Positions 13,940-29,146 of a DNA stretch of 64,000 nt are shown here, piece after piece. The notes below the pieces were generated by a model. That model did not search any database, had not been told where the DNA came from, and saw only the letters and a list, made by a program, of their open reading frames with translations. The translations under genes and the position numbers were made by a program. The first letter of the stretch is position 1, and each line of letters starts with the position of its first letter. This DNA is from an uncultured Acidobacteriota bacterium (GTDB taxonomy: Bacteria; Acidobacteriota; UBA6911), in NCBI GenBank assembly GCA_963843575.1, contig CAWJKZ010000014.1, positions 736,001 through 800,000 on the forward strand, given 5' to 3'.

Positions 13940-16057
13940 TCAACGCGCGCAGCGGAATCCGTGCAATTCGGTGCAATACGTTGGAGCGCCCGGCAACCGG
14001 ACGGCCGAGCGTAACACGGTTGGATGACCGTGAATGAAGCCGCCGCGCGCAACACGGTCTCCCGAGGCTTCGGGGTCCTCACGCCCATCATCACTGCGGT
14101 ACGGATAGTCCGAGGAGAGGCTGGAGGTCCACTCGCCGGCGTTGCCGAGCATGTCGTACAGGCCCCACGGATTTCTGCGGCGCTCATCGCCGACCGGCAG
14201 GGTATTGTGGCTGTTATTGGCAAAGACATCCGCGAAGGTATCGCCCCACCAAAATTCCGACTGGGTGCCGGCACGGCAGGCGTACTCCCACTCGGCCTCA
14301 GTCGGGAGCCTTTTGCCTGCCCACTGCGCATAGGCCCGGGATGCATGCCAGCTCACGCAGAGCACCGGGTGATCGGCTTTACCTGGCGGATAATCAAAAC
14401 CGTTCCACAGTTTGAGGTATTCCTCGTCTACAAGGCGCTGCCCGGCCCTCCCCTTCTGCCACTGCGGGTTGGCATACACGAATCGCTGATAGTCCGCGTT
14501 GGTGACTTCGTTCACATCCATCCAGAAGCCCCGCTCCACCCTCACCGTGTGCTTCAGTTCCGAGAAACCGTTGGATCTGAGGACAGACAGAGTGCCCATC
14601 TGGAAGCTTCCTGGAGGTATCCAGACCATTTCGCGGCCGTCGCCCGGGCTGGTCCAGCGATCACCAGGCCGGGGATCCGGGTCCTCGCCTTTTAGACGCT
14701 GGATAGCCGGGAGATCCTTGGCGGCAACATAACCGCCGTGCCAGGCCCACACGAAATAAGCCCCGGCAACCATCAGGACCACGGCCGCCAGTCCGAGGGC
14801 CAGGCGAACCAACCACGGAACAATTCGCGAGGAAACCGATCGCCGGTTCCATGCTGCGGCTTTTTTCTCAGGCTTGTCCGTTCGTTCCTGCGCTGCTATG
14901 TCCGTCTCGACTCCTCGCGTGGACTGCGGGAGCCGGTCGTCGGCGCTGCCGACCGGCGAAACCGGCGTTCCCCGATCCGGCGGTTTGCCGACCCTAGGTG
15001 CGGACTCCGCGCTCTTCCGTTCTTCAGTTGGCGGGCGCGGTTCCTTCGCCGCATGACTCCGCTCCCTTGCAGGACTGAGCTCGGCGGCCTCCGCCTGTAT
15101 GCGGAGCAGGGCCTCCTGCCGCTCGCGCTCCGCCGTGCCATCCAATTCCCGGCAGAGCTCCGCGACTGTCGGAAACCGATCTGCAGCCTGCTTTTCGAGG
15201 CAGCGCAGCACGAGGGCGTTCATGGCCGGCGATACCCCCTCGATGGGTTTCGGCGCTTTCCCACGGATCTGGGCCGTGATATCGCCCGTGTAAAACGGCG
15301 GGTCGCCGGTGACGAGCTCGTAGAGGACGACACCCAGCGAATACAGGTCGCTCTGGGGGGACGTCTCCCCCATGACCTGTTCCGGAGACATGTAAAGGAG
15401 GGTGCCAGAGTCGAGTGCGCCGGTCAGGCGCGATACCGAGTCACGGCAGGCGCGCGCGATGCCGAAGTCCGCGATTTTCACCGAACCATCCTTACCGAGC
15501 ATCACGTTCCCCGGCTTGAGATCGCGGTGGACTATGCCCTTCGAATGGGCATGTTCGAGGCCCCGGCAAATTTCAACCGCGATTCTCCTCGCTTCGCCTT
15601 CCGGGAACCTGTCCGACGCCGCCAGCAACTGGGCCAGGCTTTCCCCATCCACGAATTCCATGGTGAGGAACTTTAAGTCCCCGTCCTCCTCGAAGTTGTG
15701 CACGCGGACGATGTTCGGGTGTGTAAGAGCCATCGAATGCCTGGCCTCGGACTTGAGTCGCGCAACCGAACCCGCGTCGCGGCTGAGGATGTCGCGCATA
15801 ACCTTGATGGCAACCGGCAACCGGAGGGCCTCATCTTCGGCCTGGTAGACCCGGCCCATGCCCCCGATTCCAATCTGCCTCTGAATGCGATAGCGTTTCA
15901 GCAGGATCGTCCCCGCCGCAAGGCCGAATTCCGTCGCAGCGGCCCCGATCGGATCGCTCACCGGTTTGCGGTTTGAGGTCGGCGCGAGGTCTCGTCCGCA
16001 GGCGGAGCAGAACAGCCCATCATCTGGATTCACGGTACGGCAGTAGCTGCAGTGCAT
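13940..16057 (-). CDS. Zn-ribbon Ser/Thr protein kinase with TM helix and FGE-sulfatase (SUMF1) domain
   Basis: CSYC..CSAC; IGIGGMGRVY, HRDLKPGN, DFG, YMSPEQ; TM segment; RLPTEAEWEYACRAG, NPWGLYDMLGNAGEW, GFRC. Confidence 0.9.
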   Translation of the reverse strand: MHCSYCRTVNPDDGLFCSACGRDLAPTSNRKPVSDPIGAAATEFGLAAGTILLKRYRIQRQIGIGGMGRVYQAEDEALRLPVAIKVMRDILSRDAGSVARLKSEARHSMALTHPNIVRVHNFEEDGDLKFLTMEFVDGESLAQLLAASDRFPEGEARRIAVEICRGLEHAHSKGIVHRDLKPGNVMLGKDGSVKIADFGIARACRDSVSRLTGALDSGTLLYMSPEQVMGETSPQSDLYSLGVVLYELVTGDPPFYTGDITAQIRGKAPKPIEGVSPAMNALVLRCLEKQAADRFPTVAELCRELDGTAERERQEALLRIQAEAAELSPARERSHAAKEPRPPTEERKSAESAPRVGKPPDRGTPVSPVGSADDRLPQSTRGVETDIAAQERTDKPEKKAAAWNRRSVSSRIVPWLVRLALGLAAVVLMVAGAYFVWAWHGGYVAAKDLPAIQRLKGEDPDPRPGDRWTSPGDGREMVWIPPGSFQMGTLSVLRSNGFSELKHTVRVERGFWMDVNEVTNADYQRFVYANPQWQKGRAGQRLVDEEYLKLWNGFDYPPGKADHPVLCVSWHASRAYAQWAGKRLPTEAEWEYACRAGTQSEFWWGDTFADVFANNSHNTLPVGDERRRNPWGLYDMLGNAGEWTSSLSSDYPYRSDDGREDPEASGDRVARGGFIHGHPTVLRSAVRLPGAPTYCTELHGFRCAR

Positions 16058-16378
16058 AGAAGTGTCCCGCCTTCCGGCGGCAGGAATTCAGTCGACTTGG
16101 AAGTGCCGCATCGGGCATCGCACCACGAGGAGCACGCCCGCCGCAATCGGGCGCGTGCCCGTTTCGAGCCGGGGACCGGAACGATGCTCCATGCAGCAAC
16201 GCGATTCTCAGGGAGAATCGCTCGTGTCGATCGGTACGCCGGGCAACCCATGGAAACGTTCAGTTTGAGATGTCAGCCAGTCTATTCGGAAACTTGCAGG
16301 GTGTCCAGCCATTTGGCCGGTGTGAGCAACCCGTCTGCTGCGCAACTCCTCCTCCATGGCCACGTTGCGCTCGCAGGA

Positions 16379-17188
16379 CTATGGCAACGGCTTGGTAGCA
16401 TGGAGATGAGCCAAAGTCACATCAACTCCGCACCAAAAAACCTTCGAATCCAAAAAGAAACGCATTCCCTCCTCTCTGCAGGCAACAAAGGGTGTGTCCC
16501 GGGAAACCGCGAACGTTGTGGAATTCAGCGGCATGATATCGTCGGACTCAACCAGTTTCAGCAGCCTTGCGTGGTTTTTCCACACGCAATCCAGATTGCG
16601 GAGCATGTTTTTGATGTAGTGCTGGACGTTCAGCCAGACACCGACGTAAGCGTGGCCCCGCATCAGAAATCATATCGGACACAGTCCCATTCGCTCGACG
16701 CTGGCTGCGCAGAGCAGGGTCAAATCAAGGCATGTGCCTCGGCGATGCTCGAAAGTCTTTTCCGCAAAAAAACCTTCTGTGAAACGGTGCGAAATGAATT
16801 CCACAGGGTTTCAGGAGTCTCAAAGCTGGGGGGGGGGATTGATGTAAGTGATTTTCAAATCCTGCTGCAACGTATTATAGAGAGCTTCCATCATCTCGAA
16901 GGCTTTTTTCCGGGTTGCCGCGCTGATACCCGCTGAGGTCGGTTTGTTTGTTCTCGCGGCGCGAGCGGTCCCGAACCATGTTGATGATTTTTTCGACCGC
17001 TTCGTTGTTGGGCCGGACGAAACAGGCCATGACATCCGCCATGTGCGGGTGGTAATATCATTCATTATAGGCAAGAACCTGCATCGGATAAGTGTCGGAG
17101 AAATACAACTCTTCATCTGCAACCACGTCGATCCGCAAACAGCCTTCTTCCGCTTCCTGCACTTGCCGCAAGCGCGATCGAATGAATC
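16379..17188 (-). pseudogene. 3' part of an IS-disrupted gene with a transglutaminase-like Cys/His domain
   Basis: Across frames: QVLAYNE*YY..MACFVRPNNEAV, SGYQ, ALYNTLQ..ITYINPPP, GTCLDLTLLCAASVERMGL, GHAYVGVWL; in-frame TGA at 17058-17060 and 16670-16672. Confidence 0.7.
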
Positions 17189-19648
17189 CAGACCTCCTGA
17201 CATAGCCCCCTGGAACCCACATTTCCATTGGTGATTCCTCAAGGGGGGCGGGGACCCAAACCTGTCCTCTTTTTTCGACTCTGATACCCCGGTTCTACCT
17301 GCGATGCTCCTGTCATGGCGGGAGCACAAAGGCAACAGAGTCTGTTCGTTCAACCGGTCAAGGATGCCGGCTCCATTGTCGTCAATGACCGTTGCACGGT
17401 TCGCACGGATCTGGGCAACCGAGTCGTTGTCGTCTCCGGTATCGTCCTGGCCCAGTACGATATTGCCGACCGTATGGCGGAGTCCTACGCGATGGTCAGT
17501 CTCGTGGAACAGGGCTGGGCAAGCCAGCGGGAAGTAGCACGAGCGTTCCGGTGTTCCGTACGCACGGTTCGTCGGCATCAACTTCGATTCGCCGCAGGCG
17601 GCTTGACTGCGCTCGGCCACCGGGACGGGTATCCTGCGGGACTCCCCCGATTGACGCGCTCGCGCGTACAGATGGTCCATCGACTCAAGGATGAGGGTCT
17701 GGCGAACCGTGAGGTGGCCCGTCGGCTCGGCGTCACTCCGAAAGCGGTCAGGAAACTCTTGAAGCGGTCGGGTTGGCACGACCACGAACCCGAACAGGTC
17801 CGCTTGCCGCTGGCGCCGTCGGGTGGGGACCCAAACCTGTCCCCTTTTCAATCCAAGCAGGCGGTTACGGCATCCGTAAGACCCTCGCCGGGCGGGGACC
17901 CAAGCGTGTCCACTTTTGTCGCTGATGCCGCAGAACCGGTTCCGATATCGTTCGATGCGGATCCTTCCGATCGGCGCGTGGATCGCATCCTTGCCTGTCT
18001 GGGACTCCTGGACGATGCGGCACCGCTGTTCTGTGCCGAAGCCCGTGTGCCCCATGCCGGCGTGCTGCTGGCGGTGCCGGCCCTGGTGGCGAGCGGCGTC
18101 TTTGCGATTGCCCGGAGCGTCTATGGCAGCATCGGCCCGGCCTTCTACGGTCTTCGCACGACTCTCATGGCTTTGGTGTTGATGGCGCTGCTGAGGATCA
18201 AGCGCCCCGAGGCACTCAAAGAGCATGCGCCGGATGATCTGGGACGCGTTCTTGGCCTCGATCGTGCTCCCGAGGTCAAGACGATGCGGCGCAAGCTCGA
18301 CCGGCTGGCTGCATCCGGTCGGGCCGCCGACTTCGGAAGAGCTCTGGCGCAAAAGCGCGTCGCAGAGCGAGGAGCCGCCATGGGATTCCTTTATGTGGAT
18401 GGACACGTGCGGGTCTATCACGGCAAGCGGACCCTGCCCAAGGCTCACGTCGCGCGGATGCGTCTGTCGATGCCGGCCACGACCGACTACTGGGTCAATG
18501 ATGCGGTCGGCGACCCGCTTTTTGTCGTCACTGCGGAAGCCAATGCCGGACTGACAAAGATGTTGCCTGTCCTGCTCCAGGAGGTGCGCTCGCTCGTGGG
18601 TGAGCGGCGGGTTACCGTGGCGTTTGACCGCGGCGGGTACAGCCCGAAGCTTTTTCTGGAGCTCATCGCTGACGGGTTCGACATTCTCACGTATCGAAAG
18701 GGGCGCATCCGGCGTATAGCCCGAGCGCACTTCAGTCGACACGAGGCGGTCATCCATGGTCGCAAGGTGGCTTACACATTGGCGGATCAGGGGGTTCGCT
18801 TGCTGAAAGGCAAGCTCCGGCTGCGCCAGGTGACGCGTCTCGTTGAGGATGGACACCAGACCCCCATTCTGACTTCCCGCCGGGACATCCCGGCCATCGA
18901 GGTCGCCTTCCGGATGTTTGAGCGGTGGACGCAGGAGAACTTCTTCAAATATCTCCGCGAGGAGTACGCGCTGGATGCCTTGGCGGACTACGGCGCTGTT
19001 GCCGCGGACCCGGCGCGGGAGGTGCCCAACCCCAAAAGAGCCGAGATGACGGCGCAACTCGAGGCGGTGCGCGCCGAGTTTAATCGCCTCACCGCAGAAT
19101 ACGGAGCCGAGGCCTTCATCAACCCTGAACAGTCCCGACCGACGATGCGAGGATTCAAGATTGCGCAATCCAACCTCGCAAATCGTATCCGGAAGGCATT
19201 CGACTGCATCTCGAACCTCGAAGTGGCGCGATCGGCTCTGCCCAAGCGGGTTCCCGTCGCCAGTGTCGTCGCGGACGAGGTGGTCCAGCTTGCACCGGAA
19301 CATAAACTGCTCACGAACATCATCAAGATGGTCGCTTACCAGGCCGAGAGTGATCTCGTGCATCTCGTGGCGCCTCACTACAAGCGGGCGGCCGACGAAG
19401 GCCGTACGTTGATCCAGTCTGCCCTCGCGTGTACCGGGAATCTCCGGGTCACGACGGAAGAACTCCACGTCACGTTGGCTCCCCTCAGCTCGCCGCATCG
19501 CTCCAAGGCAATTGCAGCACTCTGCGAGGAACTGAACCTCAGCGCGGCCACGTTCCCTGGATCCCGCCTCCGTCTCCGCTACGCGGTGGAACTCGGTCGG
19601 CCGTGCCATAAGAGGACAATTCAATAGGCGCCTATGTCAGGAGGTCTG
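17189..19648 (+). mobile_element. intact insertion sequence, 2460 bp, 17-bp perfect TIR, 5-bp TSD
   Basis: CAGACCTCCTGACATAG at 17189-17205 and CTATGTCAGGAGGTCTG at 19632-19648; GAATC at 17184-17188 and 19649-19653. Confidence 0.92.
17315..19627 (+). CDS. large DDE transposase with two N-terminal HTH domains (770 aa)
   Basis: HTHs SQREVARAFRCSVRTVRR and ANREVARRLGVTPKAVRK; YVDGH, FDRGGYS and RWTQENFFK catalytic motifs. Confidence 0.88.
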   Translation: MAGAQRQQSLFVQPVKDAGSIVVNDRCTVRTDLGNRVVVVSGIVLAQYDIADRMAESYAMVSLVEQGWASQREVARAFRCSVRTVRRHQLRFAAGGLTALGHRDGYPAGLPRLTRSRVQMVHRLKDEGLANREVARRLGVTPKAVRKLLKRSGWHDHEPEQVRLPLAPSGGDPNLSPFQSKQAVTASVRPSPGGDPSVSTFVADAAEPVPISFDADPSDRRVDRILACLGLLDDAAPLFCAEARVPHAGVLLAVPALVASGVFAIARSVYGSIGPAFYGLRTTLMALVLMALLRIKRPEALKEHAPDDLGRVLGLDRAPEVKTMRRKLDRLAASGRAADFGRALAQKRVAERGAAMGFLYVDGHVRVYHGKRTLPKAHVARMRLSMPATTDYWVNDAVGDPLFVVTAEANAGLTKMLPVLLQEVRSLVGERRVTVAFDRGGYSPKLFLELIADGFDILTYRKGRIRRIARAHFSRHEAVIHGRKVAYTLADQGVRLLKGKLRLRQVTRLVEDGHQTPILTSRRDIPAIEVAFRMFERWTQENFFKYLREEYALDALADYGAVAADPAREVPNPKRAEMTAQLEAVRAEFNRLTAEYGAEAFINPEQSRPTMRGFKIAQSNLANRIRKAFDCISNLEVARSALPKRVPVASVVADEVVQLAPEHKLLTNIIKMVAYQAESDLVHLVAPHYKRAADEGRTLIQSALACTGNLRVTTEELHVTLAPLSSPHRSKAIAALCEELNLSAATFPGSRLRLRYAVELGRPCHKRTIQ

Positions 19649-20374
19649 GAATCAGGGGGAGGCAGAGGCTTTTCTCCACGTGTTTTTTGCCGGGGAGGAT
19701 GTCAGGGATCGTCTTCTGAAATGGTTCACTGTAGTCTGGAGCCACCCAGGCTTTTACCAGGATATTCTGAAGGACCTCCTTTGAATTGTTGTTGAGCTGC
19801 AGCGAAGTGATGAGGGGCTGTCCCGAGTGCACCAGCGAATAGTTGAGGCGAGGTATGCCTTTGACTTTGAGCTTCAGGTCCCGAATTGCGATTCGCTGGA
19901 AAAGGGGCGCTCCGGCCTGTTGCATCAGCAGGTCAAGCCTGTAACCCGTGTTCTTGATTGGCAGGCGGGGATCGATTTCGGCGTGGCTGAGAAGATCGGG
20001 TAGTTCGTCTTCGTCTTCCTCGGCCAGCTCGTCAATTTCTGCGTCGGACAGGTCGGATGGCAGTGACGTTGTCCGATGGGAGGGACTGGCGCCTCTGCGG
20101 TCGAGGATGCCTGAAATCTCGTCGACGGAGCGCGACACATCGCTTCTGATCTGGTCCAGCATGCTTTGATTCCGGCTGCGAAGTGCTTCAAGAGACGATT
20201 GCAGTGCCGATCGGGGGCCGGAGGAGGCTCCTGTGCCGGTGCGCGCTTGCGCGCAGGCTCTGCATGTGGCGCTGAAGGAGCCACACCGGGAGCCGTTCTT
20301 GGTATGTCATGGCGCGCAGCCAGAACGACTCCCAGGGCACCCGATTTCGGCGGATGCTGGACAACCAGTGGCAT
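19649..20374 (-). pseudogene. 5' part of the IS-disrupted gene
   Basis: ORF 19632-20162 (PRLNYSLVHSGQPLITSLQL.N) reads into the IS end; frameshifted upstream extension to about 20374. Confidence 0.55.
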
Positions 20375-20449
20375 TGTCGAATAGACTCAGGCCGCCCTAC
20401 AGCATCTCAATTCTGCGGACGAAGTGCCGCACCGAACTGGAGATCAGCC

Positions 20450-22507
20450 ATGAAAACTGTGCTCCAGGAACACTCCTTGGACTGGGCGCTGACCCACGTA
20501 TCCCGATTCTGCGACAACGACTTTTTCCCGGCTATGTTCGAATTCAATGTCTTTGCTGGGGATTGGAATGAAGTCAGGATGCATATCCTCGCCATTGACC
20601 TGCAGGCGCACCTTCCAAGACCGCCGCTGGTTCGCTTCGCTCCGAAGCTGGCGGGATCCTTCCGGATACTCCATCGCCTCGACCCCATCGATTCGCTGAT
20701 CTATACCGCCCTTGTGCACGAGATCAACGAGACGTTGGAAAAATCCCGAGGCATGGGATCCACGGCATCCATTCACCCCTTCCGCATCGAGCCCTCCGCC
20801 AACGGGTCATTCTTCGGCGGCCGAAATTCGTGGCAGCAACACACCGAAAAACTTGAAAACCTGGCGAAGCAGTACCGCTGCTGCGGGCCTCAGAACACCG
20901 GCGGGTTCGTATTCATGGCGGATATCCACGACTTCTTCGGCAACATCCAGCCACGCCGGCTGATCCAGATGCTGCTCGAATCGGGCGCCGTGGGCGCGGA
21001 GCGAGCCCAAGCGCTCGGGCGCTTCCTTCCCGCGGTCTGCACCGGGGCCGGGCGTGGCATCCCCGCCGGCCCGGGGGCCAGCAGGGTCCTTGCCGAGTTG
21101 CTCTTCGCAGGCATCGATCAGAAGATCCTCCAGTACACGACCGACTTCACGCGGTGGGGCGACGACCTGCGGATGTTCTTCCGGACGCGAGAGGCGGCGG
21201 AAACGGCGCTACGCGATGTGACCACGCATCTGCATGCGATCCATGAATTGAGATTCGCCCCGCTGAAGACGCGCATTGTGCCGGTGGATGAATTCCTGGC
21301 GCACCACTTCAAGAGCCGGCCCGACGAATCCGCGGATGCCGGGGCCGCGGAGGTCCGGTTGAGCCAGCTCGTCGGGCAGAGCCCCCATGCCCTGCATTAC
21401 CATTGGATGTCCTCGGATGCAGCTGCACCCCCGTCGCAGGAAACAGGCGTTTACGCCACCCTGCAATCGCTACCTGAGCACGCGGAGGTTGGGACGGCGT
21501 ACGTCGTTCACTTCAACCGCGCGGTCGAAGGCAGCCCGCCGGATCTCCTCGCCGCACGGCGCATCCTGCGCAAAGCCGCGGCATACCGAGTCCGCACCCT
21601 CCTCCCGGGCGTGCTGGCGCATTTCGACAAGCTTGCCCCCGTGATTCGAGAAACGGCGATCTACCTGAAATCGGTTCTGGACACGGAGAACGTCCGGACC
21701 CACGCCAAGGAAATCCGCGAGATGTGGGAGGGGAGGCTCCACTCCTCCTCGTTCATCAACGAGTGGATGGGGCACGTGTTGACCCACCCTGCTTTCAACG
21801 AAATCGATTTGCCTGCGCATTACAGCGAGCTCGTGGATGTCAGGAGCAAGGCCCTGATTGCACTGCGGAAGAATGATGTGGATTGGGTCAGGAGGCACGC
21901 GGCTCAGCTGGACACCTTCGATCTGTGGGACAGGCGGGCGGTCCTCTATGCCTGCTCCGTGCTGCCCGAAGGCGAACGGGCGGACGTCGCGAGAATGGCC
22001 CTGGCCCGAGGGGGCATCACCGAGCGGGCCGTGGCGCGGCACATCGAGCCCGGGTCCGTCGCCGCAGCCGCGTCGGCCAGACTGAGGGGCCGGATCGGGG
22101 CCCCGGACAACTATCCTTCCTATGGCGACAAGGCGTTCAGGAGTCCGGACAGTGATCTATCCCGCGGCTACCGCGTCGAAGCCCCGGACAACTACCCCGC
22201 GTATGGCACCAAGGCCGTGGCCCCGAGCCCGCACTGGCTGAGCGAGCGCATCCCGGAACTGGATGCGCTGCTGAGGGAGCATGGTCCCGAAATCACCGTA
22301 GGCATCCAGGACTCGATCGATTCCGGCAACTGCATGTCGGGAACCGAATCGTTCCGTCGCGACCTTCTGGCACGCCTGGAGTTGAAGCCGGACACCGCTG
22401 CCGTTCCGGCCAGCGCGCTGCTGGCGCACCGCGACGACCCGTTGACCCGTAGGGCGGCCCGGGCCGCGGCCCTGCGCTGGAAGGAACTGCAAGGCAAGAA
22501 ACCGTGA
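20450..22507 (+). CDS. reverse transcriptase, UG/Abi-like, with alpha-helical and C-terminal extensions (685 aa)
   Basis: RBS GGAGA before ATG 20450; DWALTH..NDFFP..FE, PK..GSFR...LDPIDS, ADIHDFF (motif A, Asp at 20921), GIPAGP..S.VLAE, RWGDD (21155-21166), LKT. Confidence 0.88.
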   Translation: MKTVLQEHSLDWALTHVSRFCDNDFFPAMFEFNVFAGDWNEVRMHILAIDLQAHLPRPPLVRFAPKLAGSFRILHRLDPIDSLIYTALVHEINETLEKSRGMGSTASIHPFRIEPSANGSFFGGRNSWQQHTEKLENLAKQYRCCGPQNTGGFVFMADIHDFFGNIQPRRLIQMLLESGAVGAERAQALGRFLPAVCTGAGRGIPAGPGASRVLAELLFAGIDQKILQYTTDFTRWGDDLRMFFRTREAAETALRDVTTHLHAIHELRFAPLKTRIVPVDEFLAHHFKSRPDESADAGAAEVRLSQLVGQSPHALHYHWMSSDAAAPPSQETGVYATLQSLPEHAEVGTAYVVHFNRAVEGSPPDLLAARRILRKAAAYRVRTLLPGVLAHFDKLAPVIRETAIYLKSVLDTENVRTHAKEIREMWEGRLHSSSFINEWMGHVLTHPAFNEIDLPAHYSELVDVRSKALIALRKNDVDWVRRHAAQLDTFDLWDRRAVLYACSVLPEGERADVARMALARGGITERAVARHIEPGSVAAAASARLRGRIGAPDNYPSYGDKAFRSPDSDLSRGYRVEAPDNYPAYGTKAVAPSPHWLSERIPELDALLREHGPEITVGIQDSIDSGNCMSGTESFRRDLLARLELKPDTAAVPASALLAHRDDPLTRRAARAAALRWKELQGKKP

Positions 22508-23223
22508 ATCGACCTCTCGGCATGCATCTGGAGGAGGTCGCCGTGCTCATGGGCGGCTTCCTGCGCGGCTTTGAAGACAGCCGTGTGCACCTGGGCACGG
22601 CGGCACGTTTCGCCGGGGAATTCGGCAGGTTGATGCGGATACCGGCGCTTCACCCTTCGGCGGGGGACAAGGCCGTATCGTATGCCGAAGCAGCCGGATC
22701 TTACCGGGTTCCCGAACATGCCGTTTTCGACGCGAGAGCGGCCGATCCAGTTTCCGTCCTGATCAGGGGTCTCACCGGGTCGCCGGCGCTGGAGTCGGCA
22801 CACCCGCTTGGGGTCCTGCATCCGGAGAGCCTGCGCGCGGATCTCGGCCGGCTGTTGCGCATCCCGCTCTTGCGCTTCTACCTCCAAGTTGCGAAACGGG
22901 AGGCGTTTTGCACGCTGTTGAAGGGGATCGCCCAGCACGGCGGCTTCCCCGTCTCGGGCACTCTGCGGGGATTGCCCGACGCTTGCCCGGCCTGTGGGCA
23001 TCGGCTGGCCTTTGATGCCGGCGGCGCCCCCCAGTGTCCTGCCTGCAGCCAGACACTCGAGACCTTTCTCACGCTCCCGATGGTACCCGGCGTCCGGGCG
23101 CTGGTCTCATACGAGATGCTGCGCCAGGTGCTCGAACTCAATCTCGTGGAAACGTACCAGGAGGAGAGTGAAATCCGGCCCCTCCGGCCCGAGAGCCAAG
23201 CCCCGCATGACCACAACCGATGA
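22504..23223 (+). CDS. hypothetical protein with CPAC-x13-CPAC zinc ribbon
   Basis: GTG start overlaps the RT stop (GTGA); its end overlaps the S8 start. Confidence 0.7.
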   Translation: MNRPLGMHLEEVAVLMGGFLRGFEDSRVHLGTAARFAGEFGRLMRIPALHPSAGDKAVSYAEAAGSYRVPEHAVFDARAADPVSVLIRGLTGSPALESAHPLGVLHPESLRADLGRLLRIPLLRFYLQVAKREAFCTLLKGIAQHGGFPVSGTLRGLPDACPACGHRLAFDAGGAPQCPACSQTLETFLTLPMVPGVRALVSYEMLRQVLELNLVETYQEESEIRPLRPESQAPHDHNR

Positions 23224-25063
23224 GAAGATACACCCTTTTCTGACAAGGTCGCTCGCCGACAGGCGCACTCTGCTGATCGCCGAGCATGTGCAGGCTGCTC
23301 TCCATTTCGAGTTTGCCGACGAACACATCGAGGAACGCGAGTACGACGAACAGGAACGGCTGCGAGTCCACCGCACGATCGATCGCAAGGTCTTCCGGGG
23401 CGACACCTACGCCCGCTACTCGCGCATCGTTTCCGGGCTTCGCAAGCAGGGTTTTGCCGGGGAAAACCTCGACGCGAAGGTCAGGGCGCATCTGGCCAGG
23501 GACCTCGGATCCGTTGCTTCCGCCGTGAACGTCCGGGATGACGTCGAGGGATCGTTGCGGCGGTACGCCGACATGTTGCCGCAACACAAGTGGCCGGTAG
23601 TCCTGTGCATAGCTCGGGCACTCGAAGAGGCCGGCCGCCTCAAGGAACGCCTGGCTTCGCTCGGATTCCCGGTCCTTTCCGAAGGATTACTGGAGAGACT
23701 CGGAATCGTCTGCTGCGGCTGCCCTCCCGAACAGAGCTTTGTCCGCCACGTCGCCAGCCTTCCCAACACCGGCGCGGTCGCCGACGCGTTGACCCCCGTG
23801 AAGGCGCCGGAACCGATGTCGGTGAGCACCACGATGGTGGAAACCCGGCTAATCCTCGGCATCACCCCGGACATGGCTGAGAAATACGGCCATGATGTCA
23901 CGCTCGCTGTCTTGGACACGGGCCTCGATCGCAACCATCCGGCCTTCGCCGCAATGTCGCACGAAGATTACGCGAACTTCACAGCAGAAGAAGATACGGA
24001 CGTTCAAGGTCATGGCACGCACGTCGCGGCCATTGCCGCCGGCAACGACCGAACGTGCGACGGCCGATATTCAGGGATCGCCCCCCGGAGTCACCTGGTC
24101 GCGGCGAAAGTCATGTCGAGGAGGCAGGACGGAACCCTCGAGTCCGTCCTTCGCGGGATGGCCTGGGCCGTCTTCGAAAAGCGCGCAGACATCCTCAGCC
24201 TGTCGCTCGGCGACTGCGGGACGCCGCCCAACGGGATGTCCATCTGGACACGGGCTTGCGAAGAGTCCTTTCGCCAGGGAACCGTGGTTTGCGTGGCAGC
24301 AGGCAATCCGTGTCCTCCCTACCCGCAATCCATCACCGTGCCGGGCGATTCCGTCCACGCCGTCACGGTTGGAGCAATCGACCGGAAACGTCAACTGGCC
24401 GGCTTTTCCGCTCTGGGGAGCACCGATCCAAACTCGCCGCTATTCGGAAAGCCCAACTGCGTCGGCCCCGGGGTGGATATCGTGGCGGCCCGCTCTGCTT
24501 CGGCAACCTACGGGCCCGCGGAAATCGTGGACCAGCTGCACGTTCGGCTCTCGGGTACAAGCATGGCGACGCCGGCCGTTGCCGGATGCCTGGCGCTGCT
24601 GAAGTCCAAGGCACGTTCTCACGGCTGGGACATCAGCCCGGCGGAGCTGGCGGATCTGTTTTACGCGGCATGCCTGCCGCTGAGAAATGCAGCCGGGCGG
24701 GAATACCGCAGCGACATCGAGGCGGGCCATGGGTTGGTGGATATGCGCGCGGCGTTCCGCGAAGCAGAGCGGCAGGCCTCGTCGCGCGCTTCCCAGGGTA
24801 TAGACAGCGCCGCGAGAGTGGAACAGGTGGGTGGACATCCGGAGCCCCTCCCCGCGGCAGTTGCAGGTAGTGCTTCGATCCAACCGGCGCAGTTCGAGCC
24901 CGGCGTCTGCCATCGCTGCGGCCAACACTACCTCGGCAGAATCGGGACCTTCTCGCCGGTGTGGGTGTGCGCGCATTGCGCTGCACCGCTTTGCGTCGTC
25001 TGCTGGCAGCTTGGCTGCCGCGAATGCGCAAAGCACAAAGCCGGCGGGGCGCAAGCCCAGTGA
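23207..25063 (+). CDS. S8 (subtilisin-family) serine protease, no signal peptide, Cys-rich C-terminus
   Basis: Triad AVLDTG (Asp 23915), GHGTHVA (His 24011), GTSMATP (Ser 24560); oxyanion AAGN; C-terminal CHRC..CAHC..LCVVC..GCRECAKH. Confidence 0.92.
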   Translation: MTTTDEKIHPFLTRSLADRRTLLIAEHVQAALHFEFADEHIEEREYDEQERLRVHRTIDRKVFRGDTYARYSRIVSGLRKQGFAGENLDAKVRAHLARDLGSVASAVNVRDDVEGSLRRYADMLPQHKWPVVLCIARALEEAGRLKERLASLGFPVLSEGLLERLGIVCCGCPPEQSFVRHVASLPNTGAVADALTPVKAPEPMSVSTTMVETRLILGITPDMAEKYGHDVTLAVLDTGLDRNHPAFAAMSHEDYANFTAEEDTDVQGHGTHVAAIAAGNDRTCDGRYSGIAPRSHLVAAKVMSRRQDGTLESVLRGMAWAVFEKRADILSLSLGDCGTPPNGMSIWTRACEESFRQGTVVCVAAGNPCPPYPQSITVPGDSVHAVTVGAIDRKRQLAGFSALGSTDPNSPLFGKPNCVGPGVDIVAARSASATYGPAEIVDQLHVRLSGTSMATPAVAGCLALLKSKARSHGWDISPAELADLFYAACLPLRNAAGREYRSDIEAGHGLVDMRAAFREAERQASSRASQGIDSAARVEQVGGHPEPLPAAVAGSASIQPAQFEPGVCHRCGQHYLGRIGTFSPVWVCAHCAAPLCVVCWQLGCRECAKHKAGGAQAQ

Positions 25064-25327
25064 GCCATCCCCCCGCTGATCTTGCGCAATGAAGCGCACC
25101 AGTCGGTCCCCTGGATTACCCCAATCACCGTTTCCCGCCGATTCCGGATGATCACCCGATCTTCCGCTGCAAAGGCCATTCATTGGACCGGGCCCGGTGA
25201 CCTGGTGGAAGACGATTCCTTGTTTCAGACCCTCCACGACGAAGAGTTCGAGGAGCCACGTGGTCTGCTCTGCGATCTCCGCGCCGCTGTTCCGAAAATT
25301 GACGACACCGTGGAGATTTGTAGAGAT

Positions 25328-25365
25328 CGCCTTGGAGGTGAGCTTCAAAAACTCACCTCCAGGCG
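25328..25365. terminator. strong hairpin downstream of the RT operon
   Basis: CGCCT-T-GGAGGTGAG / CTCACCTCC-AGGCG stem with a 9-nt loop. Confidence 0.4.
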
Positions 25366-25433
25366 GTATCCGAAACTGGGATGAACCTCAAGCGGATCTC
25401 CTGCGTATGCTTATGACAAGAGAGGATACCGCC

Positions 25434-26918
25434 ATGAAACCGATGAGCCTTGCACTGATGATGGTTGTGCTGGCTTTCACTCGCTTCTCCTTCGGCGCTG
25501 CCGAGAGCGGGGTCGCACGCGATCCCGCGGTAAGCGCGGCACTGACCCAACTCGATGTGCAGCTGGCTGCCGTGTTGAAGGAACGCAATCTACCCGGTCT
25601 TTCGGCGTGCGTCGTCTATGACCGGGAGTTGATCTGGGCCAAGGGGTATGGATACGCGGACCTGGAGTCTCGAGTTCCGGCGGACGCGGACAGCATCTAC
25701 GAGATCGGTTCCGTTACGAAGCTGTTCAACGCGGTGATGCTGATGAAGCTGAGAGACGCGGGCCGGCTGAGCCTGGACGATCCCATCGAGAAGTACCTCC
25801 CCGAGTTTAAGGTCAAGTCCAGTTTCCCGGATTCGCGACCCCCGACGTTTCGCGAGGTGGTATCCCATGTAAGCGGCCTGCCGCGGGAGTTCGGGTTCGA
25901 CGTGGGCAAGTCCGGCCACCTTCAGCAGTATCCGGCCGCGGTGGTGCTGGCCGGGATCAAGGACAAGGAAATGCAGTACCCCGCCCATTCCGGCTTTCAC
26001 TACTCCAACCTTGGAATCTATATCATCGGGCAGGCCTTGCAGAAGATCGCCGGCGAACCCTACACGCAGTACATGCAACGAAACGTCTTCGACCCGCTCG
26101 GGATGCGGAGTACCGGGTGGGAGTACACCGAGGCGATGAAGCCGCACAGGGCGATTGGCTATTTGGCCGCAAAGCCGGACGGCAGCAGGGAGGTTGCGCC
26201 GCTCTTCGTCCCGGGAGACTTTGGCGTTTCGGCCGGCGGGATTCAGTCCTCCGTCAGAGACATGGCCAAATTCATCTCGTTGCAGTTCGGTGAGGGCCCC
26301 GCCGCAGGCGCACAGATACTCGGGGGCACAACCCTGCGGGAAATGCGTTCCTCCCTGGTCCCCGCAGAGAACTGGCTATGGGGTTACGGGATCGGCTGGG
26401 AGGTCGAAAAGTACACGCGCCATGTGGGCATCTGTCACACGGGCGGCACCCTTGGGTTCGCCAGCAAGGTCCGCGCTGTGCCGGACCTCAAGCTCGGCTT
26501 CGTGTTGCTCGTCAACCAGGATACGGATTCGGACGAACTGAGCCGCAAGCTGGTCGAGGGGCTCATTCCCGCTTTCGAACAGGTGGCAAAGAAGCGTTCG
26601 CTGCAGGAAAAGCCGCCGCTCCCCGCCGACGCCGCCAGGTACACCGGGCACTACGCCTGCGAGTTCGGCGTCGCCGACATCAGCATCCTCGACGGCCGTC
26701 TGGTCCTGATCACCACGGAAGCGGATGGATCGAAGGGCGCGCCGTGGATACTGGAAGCGCGGAAAGACAGCACGCTCCTCGTTAAATCCGGGTCCGGAAA
26801 TTTCGACGGCCTCGTCGTCGCTTTCCACCCGGCGACCGCGACGGAACCGGCAAACATCGAACTCCTCGGAGTGAAGTTCCCGAGAAAAGGGGAGGGACCC
26901 CCCGCGAACAACCCGTGA
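25434..26918 (+). CDS. secreted serine hydrolase, beta-lactamase/AmpC family
   Basis: Signal peptide; SVTK (SxxK), YSN (YxN), HTGG motifs. Confidence 0.88.
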   Translation: MKPMSLALMMVVLAFTRFSFGAAESGVARDPAVSAALTQLDVQLAAVLKERNLPGLSACVVYDRELIWAKGYGYADLESRVPADADSIYEIGSVTKLFNAVMLMKLRDAGRLSLDDPIEKYLPEFKVKSSFPDSRPPTFREVVSHVSGLPREFGFDVGKSGHLQQYPAAVVLAGIKDKEMQYPAHSGFHYSNLGIYIIGQALQKIAGEPYTQYMQRNVFDPLGMRSTGWEYTEAMKPHRAIGYLAAKPDGSREVAPLFVPGDFGVSAGGIQSSVRDMAKFISLQFGEGPAAGAQILGGTTLREMRSSLVPAENWLWGYGIGWEVEKYTRHVGICHTGGTLGFASKVRAVPDLKLGFVLLVNQDTDSDELSRKLVEGLIPAFEQVAKKRSLQEKPPLPADAARYTGHYACEFGVADISILDGRLVLITTEADGSKGAPWILEARKDSTLLVKSGSGNFDGLVVAFHPATATEPANIELLGVKFPRKGEGPPANNP

Positions 26919-27457
26919 TGACGGCCGCTGCCGCGATCGCGTCCCGGCCGGAGACGGACAATGCGCTGACCCGGATTGGGCGCGACGGGCTGGAGGCCGG
27001 CGTGTCGCCCGAACGCTTGAAACGGAACCTGGCGCGCAATCCCTGCCGGCAATCTCACAATCACGACAAGTGTCTACTACACAGACGAGTCCATGGATTC
27101 GCGCGGAAACCGGCGAGTTCGAGGAAAACCCGAATTCGATCGTCCTCGGCATCGCGGCAGGGCCACAGCGCAAGGCGACCGCGCTCGACGCCACTGCCGG
27201 CGACACCGCCGTCGCCGAGGCAACCTACGACCCGTGCACAAACAGGCTTCGCGCAAGAAAGTTCCTGCGCGTCGCCGGACGTCTGTACCTTGTGGGCCTC
27301 GAATGCGAGTGCCACAGGAAGTAGTCCGTCTTCGCAACGCAACGCGTTAGTAGCGACTTCCCGCTGACCAGCCGAAATACATTGTCACAGCCCGGAAGTC
27401 GGCTGCACGGATGGTGACCGGCATGAAAGAAGACAATCGCTATTGCTTCACGCTCAG

Positions 27458-27728
27458 CTGGCTTTCACGGTTTCCGGCACTCGGCCGCCAGTCCGATCAA
27501 CAACGAGACCGGCAATCTGAAGCTCGCGCAGAATCTCCTCGGCCACTCCACTCTCCAGATGACCCGGACACCTACACGCACACCTCAACCGAGGCCCAGC
27601 GGGAGGCAGCCGAGGTTTTGGAACGGACAATTTTCGGAAATCTGTTCCCAATTGTTCCCATAATCGGGAACAGGAACAATCAATTAACGCAAAGGCCACG
27701 CAGGTCTGCCAAGCCTGCAGGTGCTTGA
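27458..27728 (+). pseudogene. C-terminal remnant of a tyrosine recombinase/integrase
   Basis: FHGFRHSAAS...LKLAQNLLGHSTLQMT then frameshift to DTYTH (HxxR, LGH, catalytic Tyr); adjacent to a tRNA 3' end. Confidence 0.85.
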
Positions 27729-27765
27729 AATCATGAAGCTTACGGGACTGAAAAAACAAAGAAAG

Positions 27766-27843
<78 letters not shown>

Positions 27844-27868
27844 TATCCAAGTAGAGGCAAATCCTAGC

Positions 27869-28637
27869 CTAATTCTTGCGACCGATCAACCCAATTCCAG
27901 GCAGTCGAACAGGATGCGACAGGTTTGTCTCTTCGCCCATCAGCCACTGGGCGGCATCGTAGTCCGTCTGGTCGCGCTGAAGGGGGGTGATCGAAATGTA
28001 GTGCTCGAGGATGGCATGGAAGTCGAGCGGCATCCCCCCGAGGTCCGGCTTCCCCGCCCCGGGGTCCTCCCCTGCCCCGTTAAAGCCGGGGTAGTGCGGT
28101 GCGCATCCCTGCCGCGTGATCTTCACCCCGCGCACCTTGCGGACCGGTACGTTGACGTTGAGGCAGACACCGAGCCGCACATCCCGATCGAGCAGCGAAC
28201 GCACCAGGGTGCGGGCAAACCTGGCCGCGTCCTTGAACTGCACGGGCTTGTCGTCGTACGCCTGCGAGATGGCGACGGCGGGAAGACCGTTCTTGGAGGC
28301 CTCCCGCGCGGCGGCCACGGTGCCCGAATACATTATGTCGTCTCCGAGATTCGCACCCGCGATTGATGCCGGAAATGACCAGGTCGGGGCGTTGGGGCGC
28401 GATGTGTCTCAGGGCGTATATCACGCAGTCCGCAGGTGTTCCGTCCAGGCTGAAGCGGTTCGGCGAGAGCTTGGTGACGGTGAGCGGGGCATGGATGGTG
28501 AGGCCGTGGCTGACGGCGCTGCGCTCGCGGTCGGGCGCCACGACGAGGATATCCGCAATGCCTTGGAGGGATACCTCCAAGGCGACCAGCCCTGCGGCTT
28601 CTATACCGTCGTCGTTGGTAAGTAGAATGAGTGCCAC
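27869..28637 (-). CDS. surE: 5'/3'-nucleotidase SurE (1-nt frameshift near 28355)
   Basis: [21 protein letters not shown]|[18 protein letters not shown]. Confidence 0.9.
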
Positions 28638-28651
28638 GAGAAAAAGAAAAA

Positions 28652-28728
28652 TGGTCGGGACGAGTGGATTTGAACCACCGACCACACGCACCCCAAGCGT
28701 GTGCGCTACCAGGCTGCGCTACGTCCCG
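28652..28728 (-). tRNA. tRNA-Pro(GGG)
   Basis: CGGGACGTAGCGCAGCCTGGTAGCGCACACGCTTGGGGTGCGTGTGGTCGGTGGTTCAAATCCACTCGTCCCGACCA; typical ihf-merR-tRNA-surE context. Confidence 0.96.
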
Positions 28729-28747
28729 ACCGACAAAAAGCACAGTA

Positions 28748-29146
28748 TCATTCGCGTTCGAGCAAAGTCAATATGTTCTCCAGTTCGGCCCGAACCTGCT
28801 TCAACTGCGAGGGCGCCTTCGATTTCTGCGCAGGAGGTTGAGCGGGTTGGCGGCGGCGCCCCCTCCGGTCGGCAGGCCGGGGAGGGTGCGTCGCCGGGCG
28901 GGGCGCTCCGGTCGCGAGCTGTTTTCGGGCTCCCGCGATCGTGAAACCGTCCTCGTATAGCAGCCTCCGGATCTCGAGCAGCAGTTCGATGTCTTTCGGC
29001 CGGTACGTCCGCTGCCCGGCCTTGTTCTTCGGCGGGGCGAGGCACGAAAACTCGCTTTCCCAGTAGCGCAGCACGTAAGCTTCGACGCCGAGGATTTCAC
29101 AAACCTCGCCGATTTTGTAGTAGAGCTTCGTGGGCGTGAACGGCAT
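28748..29146 (-). CDS. MerR-family transcriptional regulator
   Basis: [27 protein letters not shown]. Confidence 0.9.

Follow-up and report, generated by a model that had tools for sequence, protein, structure and literature searches.

Background

The locus described here holds a reverse transcriptase (RT) of the UG7 group, one of the groups of bacterial defence RTs. UG7 protects E. coli against T5 in a manner that needs the RT active site, hence its name DRT8 (Mestre 2022), and in the same study 150 of 385 UG7 members are accompanied by a PD-(D/E)XK nuclease (cluster 17) that defence needs as well, while 165 members are given as having no associated gene. A DRT8 with a PNP domain “replacing the usual nuclease” effector is also on record (Rousset 2023 preprint); its PNP is of the Cap17 type, an ATP nucleosidase, and provides a precedent for an effector swap. 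With both nuclease and PNP variants on record, effector swapping is thus a known property of the DRT8 family, which a 2026 overview lists as having a “dedicated mechanism not yet established”. Here we consider three adjacent genes from an uncultured Acidobacteriota bacterium (GenBank assembly GCA_963843575.1, contig CAWJKZ010000014.1, positions 736,001 to 800,000; this whole stretch of 64,000 nucleotides is referred to below as the window), which encode an RT, a Zn-ribbon protein and an S8 subtilase, and which were first picked out in a prediction made from the sequence alone (the original prediction). Our tentative preference is to read them as a single operon in which the antiphage RT family DRT8 (UG7) has acquired a new type of effector. 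Proteins, genomes and loci are referred to by our own numbers (P, G and L) where they need to be told apart.

The window RT resembles those of DRT8 in fitting almost the whole Drt8 profile, in keeping the catalytic residues and in adjoining a putative hydrolase effector, but differs in being partnered by a Zn-ribbon protein and an S8 protease, with no nuclease match in Pfam, PADLOC or NCBIfam, and in possessing a C-terminal extension of ~145 amino acids. Relative to the PNP variant of DRT8, the candidate effector is a two-gene protease module rather than a nucleosidase. A second comparison is with IetAS, in which a protease toxin (IetS) is paired with an ATPase antitoxin (IetA; PMC13069673). 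In both, an operon of defence type encodes a cytoplasmic S8 protease, and sister loci of the window have an IetA-like AAA+ gene before the pair, yet the window S8 scores only 29.4 bits against the NCBIfam IteS model (cut-off 900), its match to PADLOC IetS (42 bits, 7.6e-12) covers the catalytic domain only, and its operon has an extra Zn-ribbon gene and, flanks included, no ATPase. A UG9 variant likewise brings together a Class 1 UG/Abi RT and a serine protease, but the RT belongs to another group, the protease is trypsin-like and fused N-terminally to the RT, and the accessory protein is an MBL hydrolase (Mestre 2022). Lastly, CspB, CspA, CspC, pro-subtilisin E and EpiP align with residues 128-530 of the predicted S8 model, prodomain included (Z 14-18), but these proteins are secreted or spore-associated, whereas the window S8 has no signal peptide by inspection and is distinguished by an N-terminal helical domain, a C-terminal Cys-rich module and a Zn-ribbon partner. 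The original prediction knew of no named system joining an RT, a Zn-ribbon protein and an S8 protease, and we likewise found no DRT/UG RT-S8 combination described in Mestre 2022, the Rousset 2023 preprint or full-text searches, while the supplementary neighbour tables of Mestre 2022 may record rare protease neighbours.

Layout of the operon

The arrangement of the three genes (Table 1) makes them look like one operon. The GTG start of the Zn-ribbon gene (gene 2) overlaps the TGA stop of the RT gene within the tetranucleotide GTGA (22504-22507), an overlap of 4 nt that suggests translational coupling, and gene 2 in turn overlaps the S8 gene (gene 3) by 17 nt. The original prediction had pointed to three tightly coupled open reading frames (ORFs) on one strand, to RT motifs in gene 1 and to a complete S8 triad in an apparently cytoplasmic subtilase, and each of these was recovered: both overlaps are present, gene 1 contains ADIHDFF, RGIPAGPGAS..LAE and RWGDD, and gene 3 keeps D237, H269 and S452. 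The start sites of the RT and S8 genes match the N-termini of their respective homologues, and a GGAG lies 7 nt ahead of the RT ATG (20450). Signals around the operon are otherwise slight: a sigma-70-like site at 20358-20387 is no better than chance, the terminator scan likewise stayed at chance level, the region upstream of the RT has an RNA fold z-score of -1.9, which is not compelling, and an Rfam scan of 16000-29000 returned two tRNAs and no other non-coding RNA.

Short metagenome contigs matching the stretch (151-467 nt, scattered over it) include sequences from soil metagenomes of three studies (151-348 nt, at least 99% identical) that match portions of the RT and S8 genes. One contig of 151 nt spans the junction between gene 2 and the S8 gene, and none of the short contigs compared spans that between the RT gene and gene 2.

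Table 1 Features of the locus and of related loci (positions are those of the window unless another locus or contig is named)
Feature	Position	Strand	Basis or remark
Reverse transcriptase (RT, gene 1), UG7/DRT8, 685 aa	20450-22507	+	ORF call and PADLOC
Zn-ribbon protein (gene 2), 239 aa	22504-23223	+	ORF call
S8 subtilase, short form (gene 3), 618 aa	23207-25063	+	ORF call and Pfam PF00082
PDNYPSYGDK / PDNYPAYGTK motif pair in RT tail	22103-22132 and 22184-22213	+	Motif scan
GNC domain of RT, residues ~595-680	22232-22489	+	phmmer family
Divergent intergenic region, putative operon promoter and RT ribosome-binding site	20163-20449	.	
Gene X', cluster-gene paralogue, broken	20162 down to ~16100	-	tblastn/tblastx; reading piece next to RT is 19632-20162
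Insertion sequence (IS) element, 770-aa Transposase_29 protein	~17180-19656		Pfam 7.3e-88; inserted in gene X'
Gene Y', 705 aa, intact: N-terminal Zn ribbon, Ser/Thr kinase, FGE-sulfatase	13940-16057	-	
Beta-lactamase-family gene, 573 aa, intact	25197-26918		
Cluster locus L084	G000 contig C24, ~204000-217500		
Cluster locus L079	G414		
Cluster locus L080	G417		
Cluster locus L081	G416		
Cluster locus L085	G438		
Cluster locus L086	G436		
Free C-domain gene	L085:6243-6956		
Free C-domain gene	L086:6364-7092		
Free C-domain gene	G000:C24:206134-207027		

A UG7 reverse transcriptase with a distinctive tail

Profile and alignment evidence indicates that gene 1 is a catalytically intact UG7/DRT8 RT. 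It matches PADLOC Drt8 with an E-value of 5.3e-87 (291 bits) over residues 5-525 and profile positions 2-482 of 493, the second-best PADLOC family being RT_UG21 at 103 bits; Pfam returned no match, and the protein falls far under the cut-offs of the NCBIfam RT models (group II, Drt3a, Drt4 and retron). The original prediction had placed the RT in the UG/Abi defence class, which agrees with its assignment to UG7 (DRT8), and had seen in it no group II maturase, retron VTG or DGR signature; the Drt8 match shows that it nevertheless belongs to a named family. In an alignment of the window RT with 11 relatives (25-74% identity), D158, G203/P205/G207/P208/S211/E216, R235/D238/D239 and K273 are invariant in all 12 UG7 RTs. 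The Drt8 profile match also spans the C-terminal helical region (to position 482 of 493), which appears to align with that of UG7 relatives; core and helical region together extend to about residue 540, and generic UG7 RTs stop near residue 530-540 of the window RT. The gene is the sole copy in the 6.68-Mb genome.

Two other classes of RT were considered and rejected. The NCBIfam retron St85 RT model scores 31 bits (cut-off 235), with no Rfam match but the two tRNAs, and the group II intron/maturase model TIGR04416 scores 49.7 bits (cut-off 300), with no intron RNA in the Rfam scan. As a separate observation, a genome of the same family (G404) contains sixteen identical-scoring RT ORFs of ~461 amino acids on eight contigs, which match the UG7 profile over the RT core only (E 4.7e-13) and have the look of a retroelement that is multiplying in the genome, possibly a group II intron.

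Beyond residue 540, the window RT (P0001) continues into a subclade-specific C-terminal extension of ~145 amino acids (residues 541-685), composed of repeats and what we term a GNC domain, which generic UG7 RTs lack. The subclade comprises P0001 and 13 homologues, the word-indexed search having returned 14 homologues. One to eight copies of PDNYP(S/A)YG(D/N/T)K are present past the RT body in 11 of the 14 subclade proteins, and a six-frame translation of the window genome (6.68 Mb) yielded two matches to the motif, both in the RT. The GNC domain, of ~85 amino acids (DSxDSGNC ... RDDPLTRRAARAAA; the general form ends RDDPxTRRAARAAA), is found in 7 of the 14 (P0001 and P0004-P0009). A literature search for the PDNYP(S/A)YGxK motif returned nothing relevant.

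The two parts of the tail are also found apart from RTs. A phmmer search with RT residues 541-685 against 1.84 billion representatives matched 67 proteins at E <= 0.001, 59 of which contain the motif D[ST]..GNC. In most of these the motif is C-terminal and the protein, ~300-450 amino acids long, is not an RT, so that the GNC domain is, on the strength of these sequence matches, a C-terminal module that is widespread outside RTs and has so far no annotation (P0152-P0213). Neither Pfam nor PHROG matched any of 30 GNC-domain proteins, and there were no PDB sequence matches. The domain is encoded on three IMG/VR viral contigs (L123, L124 and L125), on each of which the gene lies within ~2 kb of the contig end, and tblastn with the RT tail and one GNC-domain protein found no match among 50,697 phage records. 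Searches of the ESM Atlas gave no usable match for the RT tail and, for P0153, weak leads to viral hypothetical clusters (0.89-0.90, under the recognition mark).

The repeats occur on their own in two small proteins, P0192 (142 amino acids) and P0194 (184 amino acids). Together with P0150 (183 amino acids), these are built either of spaced GPDNYP(S/A/N/T)YG(D/G)K repeats, four or five in number, or of a GNC domain with three repeats behind it, and the three proteins suggest that the motif may belong to a free-standing short linear motif system. It is also present at the end of a coiled-coil protein of the gene cluster described below, in genome G063, where two PDNYPSYGNK repeats are found that are missing from its four orthologues. 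Next to this repeat-bearing protein starts the gene for a Zn-ribbon kinase akin to gene Y' (L103:942-1742).

The S8 protease and its Zn-ribbon partner

Gene 3 matches Pfam PF00082 (Peptidase_S8) at 2.2e-42 over residues 228-484, and its D237, H269 and S452 triad, together with N367, is invariant in 9 members of the S8 family. Its N-terminus (MTTTDEKIHPFLTRSLADRR...) shows no signal peptide, as judged by reading of the sequence alone, no predictor having been used. The predicted model (mean predicted local distance difference test score, pLDDT, of 60, rising to 85-93 over residues 70-200) would place an N-terminal helical domain at residues 1-125, a beta-alpha-beta prodomain-like unit at 128-200, the catalytic domain at 213-530 and a Cys/His-rich Zn module at 562-611. 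Fold comparison returned 44 subtilase chains (Z 12-18), and pro-subtilisin E (3whi), EpiP (3t41), CspA (9pr9) and CspC (6mw4) align from about model residue 128. Consequently, the protease appears, on this model, to keep its prodomain and a zymogen-like build.

Most relatives of this protease are longer. Among 25 full-length S8 relatives, 23 have 805-907 amino acids and an extra C-terminal domain of ~270 amino acids, and only the window S8 (P0003) and P0028 (626 amino acids, 70% identity) end cleanly after the Cys-rich module; P0045 (711 amino acids) represents an incomplete long form. In the tree, P0003 and P0028 group together (support 100/99) within the long forms, and although 30% diverged, both retain the triad and all Zn ligands. 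A nested short clade that has kept these residues through ~30% divergence points to a single, older loss of the C-terminal domain followed by conservation. Viral contigs scanned with the S8 alignment gave only generic catalytic-domain matches (23-37% identity) and no members of the family.

Gene 2 has no family in Pfam (sub-threshold Zn-ribbon matches only), PADLOC or NCBIfam. It has nine homologues at 40-54% identity, and four Cys residues (161, 164, 178 and 181) are invariant in their alignment. Its model is reliable in the C-terminal half only (pLDDT ~80-88 over residues 110-220), where it predicts a ferredoxin-like unit with an inserted Zn ribbon. The best fold matches of this unit are subtilase prodomains (PCSK9 P chain, Z 5.9, root-mean-square deviation 3.1, 78 residues aligned), a weak match that is tied with NusG-NGN and other ferredoxin-like folds, and the predicted prodomain-like fold is only a lead. 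Profile comparisons revealed no relationship between the Zn-ribbon and S8 families, nor between the RT and S8 families.

The usual home of the pair

Genes for the Zn-ribbon protein and the S8 protease are adjacent in five genomes of the family (G414, G417, G416, G412 and G063), and of 51 family genomes, the 6 that match the Zn-ribbon profile are exactly those with the S8. Around the pair lies one conserved gene order in G414, G417, G416 and G412, and the same order is seen in G063, in pieces on three short contigs. It begins with a membrane protein, a protein of ~200 amino acids, AAA+ ATPase 1, the Zn-ribbon gene and a long S8, and proceeds with two further proteins of ~200 amino acids, AAA+ ATPase 2, a transmembrane protein and an SPFH protein with a double Zn ribbon. 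In this cluster the pair therefore comes after an AAA+ ATPase, that is, the ATPase occupies the position of the RT. The cluster as a whole has 10-12 genes, with the pair present or absent, and also includes a Zn-ribbon Ser/Thr kinase with an FGE-sulfatase domain, as well as SPFH/Band 7 domains. Judging from these gene orders, the Zn-ribbon protein and S8 are a conserved two-gene protease module whose usual home is the AAA+/SPFH/kinase cluster, and the pair is not confined to partnership with the RT.

The pair is missing from the clusters of G000 (contig C24), G438 and G436, and in these the S8 C-terminal domain is instead a free gene of 237-279 amino acids after ATPase 1. This domain, which corresponds to about residues 620-905 of P0032, has no Pfam family, and the free gene on G000 contig C24 has one internal TAA. 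Since the genome-placed long forms sit in the cluster, and the short clade is nested among them, the tree indicates that the short S8 is derived from long forms. The window shows a compact form in which the RT takes the position held elsewhere by the AAA+ ATPase, and the S8 lacks the C-terminal domain that would tether it to the cluster.

Of the two ATPases, both of the classical AAA+ type, ATPase 1 matches PADLOC IetA at 1.4e-32, and its best PDB sequence matches are Cdc48/p97/VAT. The three cluster proteins of ~200 amino acids have no Pfam family. An interpretation of the cluster in which these proteins would be ESCRT-III-like and the ATPases Vps4-like was also considered and rejected: there was no Pfam match to Snf7/PspA, Vps4_C was sub-threshold (E 0.005), the coiled-coil profile had no PDB match, and a literature search for bacterial ESCRT/Vps4 combined with subtilisin returned nothing relevant.

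Association of the reverse transcriptase with the pair

The account best supported by our analysis is that the subclade RT and the Zn-ribbon/S8 module are genuinely connected in function. Besides the GTGA overlap, the conservation of the short S8 clade, the repeats shared with the G063 cluster protein and the gene families that the locus has in common with the cluster (see below), it draws on recurrence and co-occurrence. An RT with 73% identity to that of the window (P0004) and the short S8 P0028 (70%) are each found on a contig of 17,043 bp, and a second RT (P0016, 50%) and a long S8 (P0036, 54%) each on a contig of 40,480 bp; from these equal sizes, the only reasonable reading is that the members of each pair share a contig, and the 17-kb counterpart probably also shows the compact form. 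As for co-occurrence, the RT subclade is present in G000, G412, G416 and G417, and G414 has an RT remnant of 134 amino acids (RT residues 436-568) ~2.5 kb upstream of its cluster on the same strand, which amounts to 5 of the 6 S8-positive genomes and 0 of the 45 other family genomes; a sample of 400 further genomes of the phylum contained no member of the subclade. Likewise, the motif query matched 4 of 5 S8-positive and 0 of 5 S8-negative genomes. The one S8-positive genome without a subclade RT is G063, where the repeats are found on the cluster protein, and the clusters without S8 in G436 and G438 also lack the RT. Complex prediction with S8 (residues 1-610), the Zn-ribbon protein and the RT tail (residues 541-685) scored 0.00 in each of two runs, and is evidence neither way.

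Surroundings of the operon

To the left of the operon are two minus-strand genes, of which X' encodes a Zn-ribbon protein that is split by the IS element and frameshifted beyond it, and Y' has clear Pkinase (1.9e-51) and FGE-sulfatase (4.6e-50) domains in Pfam. The two are collinear with G000:C24:214387-217444 at 49-62% amino-acid identity (tblastn and tblastx), and are thereby paralogous to the final two genes of the AAA+/SPFH cluster on contig C24. Together with the Zn-ribbon/S8 pair, this paralogy means that the operon locus and the cluster have four gene families in common. Copies of the IS that are 93% identical exist on two contigs of a same-genus genome (G401); that genome does not contain the operon, and locus boundaries could not be drawn from it.

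Two tRNA-Pro genes (CGG and GGG, spanning 27767-28728) flank two overlapping minus-strand ORFs (27869-28333 and 28080-28691), which are probably halves of one frameshifted gene with, by eye, a SurE-type resemblance. The original prediction had described most neighbours of the operon as broken and had placed it in a tRNA-linked island. The former description is right for gene X' and probably for 27869-28691, and is overstated in that the kinase gene, the beta-lactamase-family gene and the genes further right are intact. The latter is at best a possibility: the distance from the operon to the two downstream tRNA-Pro genes is 2.7 and 3.6 kb, and no integrase was identified (attachment repeats were not searched for).

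Discussion

Under the reading that we tentatively favour, an RT of the DRT8 family would control a new effector. By analogy with the nuclease and PNP variants, the protease may be taken as that effector, in which case the S8 protease would replace the PD-(D/E)XK nuclease of canonical DRT8, and the prodomain and the Zn-ribbon protein would hold it inactive. The repeats of the RT tail could form the physical link, either as a docking site for the protease module, in place of the lost C-terminal tether, or as a cleavage site. Infection would then change the activity or the product of the RT, leading to release of the protease, and the freed enzyme would cut host or phage proteins, so that the infection is aborted.

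Several observations weigh against this reading. No homologue of the Zn-ribbon protein or S8 was found at any of 63 fetched UG7-related loci, the pair is present at none of the 25 UG7 loci with at least 2.5 kb of downstream sequence, and at the four closest fetched loci (L003, L004, L019 and L020; 50-52% identity) the RT is alone among unrelated genes. Flanking ORFs of other UG7 loci revealed no recurrent partner of any kind, merely five two-member groups. The RT of G416 and that of G417 are each on a contig other than that of the S8 cluster, and the contigs of the GNC-tailed RTs P0005, P0007, P0008 and P0009 (7.3-15.9 kb) match the size of no listed S8 contig. Furthermore, the association on the 17,043- and 40,480-bp contigs is read from equal size and not from gene order, and none of the Zn-ribbon homologues returned is on the 17,043-bp contig; the co-occurrence comes from few lineages, with four genomes from one genus, and may reflect shared descent; and the prodomain match of gene 2 is weak. 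The recurrence that the original prediction had proposed as a test thus has a divided outcome, with at least one further case, a 73% identical RT and a 70% identical short S8 apparently on one contig, and the pair absent from the 25 fetched UG7 loci with sufficient downstream sequence. Next to the operon are an IS and broken paralogues of cluster genes, making juxtaposition by rearrangement possible, and a rather unlikely alternative is consequently that the locus comprises two independent units, a stand-alone UG7/DRT8 RT of the partner-less kind that functions by itself and a separate Zn-ribbon/S8 pair, brought side by side in a variable, IS-bearing region. The 165 UG7 members reported without an associated gene (Mestre 2022), the solitary state of the closest fetched RTs, the absence of the pair from the 25 flanked loci and the home of the pair in another cluster would all be expected in that case. 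Against it stand the 4-nt overlap with its suggestion of translational coupling, the appearance of a diverged second RT and short-S8 pair on one contig, the short S8 clade kept intact since the loss of its C-domain, the restriction of the RT subclade to S8-positive genomes, and a repeat motif shared with a cluster protein.

The cluster offers further explanations, and it seems to us improbable, though worth considering, that the operon is a satellite of the AAA+/coiled-coil/SPFH/kinase cluster (the C24 copy) which acts in trans with membrane-associated machinery, maybe in envelope stress or remodelling and not in immunity. The C24 cluster, itself without S8, holds as a free gene exactly the C-domain missing from the window S8, but that gene has an internal TAA; paralogues of the last two genes of the cluster flank the operon; and subclade RTs are unlinked to, yet co-occur with, the cluster in G412, G416 and G417, whereas the clusters of G436 and G438, which lack S8, also lack the RT, so that the RT tracks S8 and not the cluster. 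The repeat motif on the G063 cluster protein and the SPFH/Band 7 domains of the cluster would suit a satellite role, but UG7 RTs are experimentally antiphage (Mestre 2022), and the resemblance of AAA+ ATPase 1 to IetA (PADLOC 1.4e-32) fits defence too. A quite unlikely possibility is that the protease matures the RT, such that S8 and the Zn-ribbon protein cut at the repeats and free the GNC domain (or free the RT from it), the freed domain being the acting part. The position of the repeats is precisely that of a linker from the RT body to the GNC domain, P0005 has its repeat and tail units twice in a polyprotein-like manner, GNC domains are C-terminal modules of many unrelated proteins, and P0148 (114 amino acids) is little more than a tail; but P0148 may be a gene fragment, P0010-P0013 and P0015 have repeats without a GNC domain, P0008 has a GNC domain without repeats, and GNC-tailed RTs occur on contigs with no listed S8. 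We consider it very unlikely indeed that genes 2 and 3 no longer have a function and are the decaying leftovers of what was once a second AAA+/SPFH cluster, as might be supposed from the lack in the window S8 of the C-domain of 23 of its 25 relatives and from the neighbouring cluster paralogue broken by an IS and frameshifts: both ORFs are intact, catalytic and Zn residues are kept in two proteins 30% diverged after the loss of the domain, and near-identical S8 fragments with few differences are found in soil metagenome contigs of three studies. More speculatively, and with a low probability in our view, the RT subclade, the pair and the AAA+/coiled-coil/SPFH/kinase cluster could all be parts of one undescribed, modular membrane-associated immune system, wired by PDNYP(S/A)YGxK motifs as sites of recognition or cutting by the protease module. 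A minimal three-gene derivative of it, in which the RT replaces the AAA+ ATPase, would then be present in the window, and the GNC tail, which has relatives among C-terminal domains encoded on viral contigs, would be a decoy or sensor for a phage factor.

Whichever of these explanations applies, the analysis brings out a conserved Zn-ribbon and S8 pair and a large AAA+/SPFH/kinase cluster in Acidobacteriota, part of which has no Pfam or PADLOC family; among its components is the S8 C-terminal domain, found both fused to the protease and as a gene of its own. This larger cluster and the motif that it shares with the RT tail are the most novel leads to emerge. Should the reading of the operon as a new DRT8 effector variant be correct, the RT of this family would be a sensor or switch able to drive unrelated effectors, and the distinctive RT tail, its repeats and the protease prodomain would offer a concrete handle on how the RT signals to its effector.

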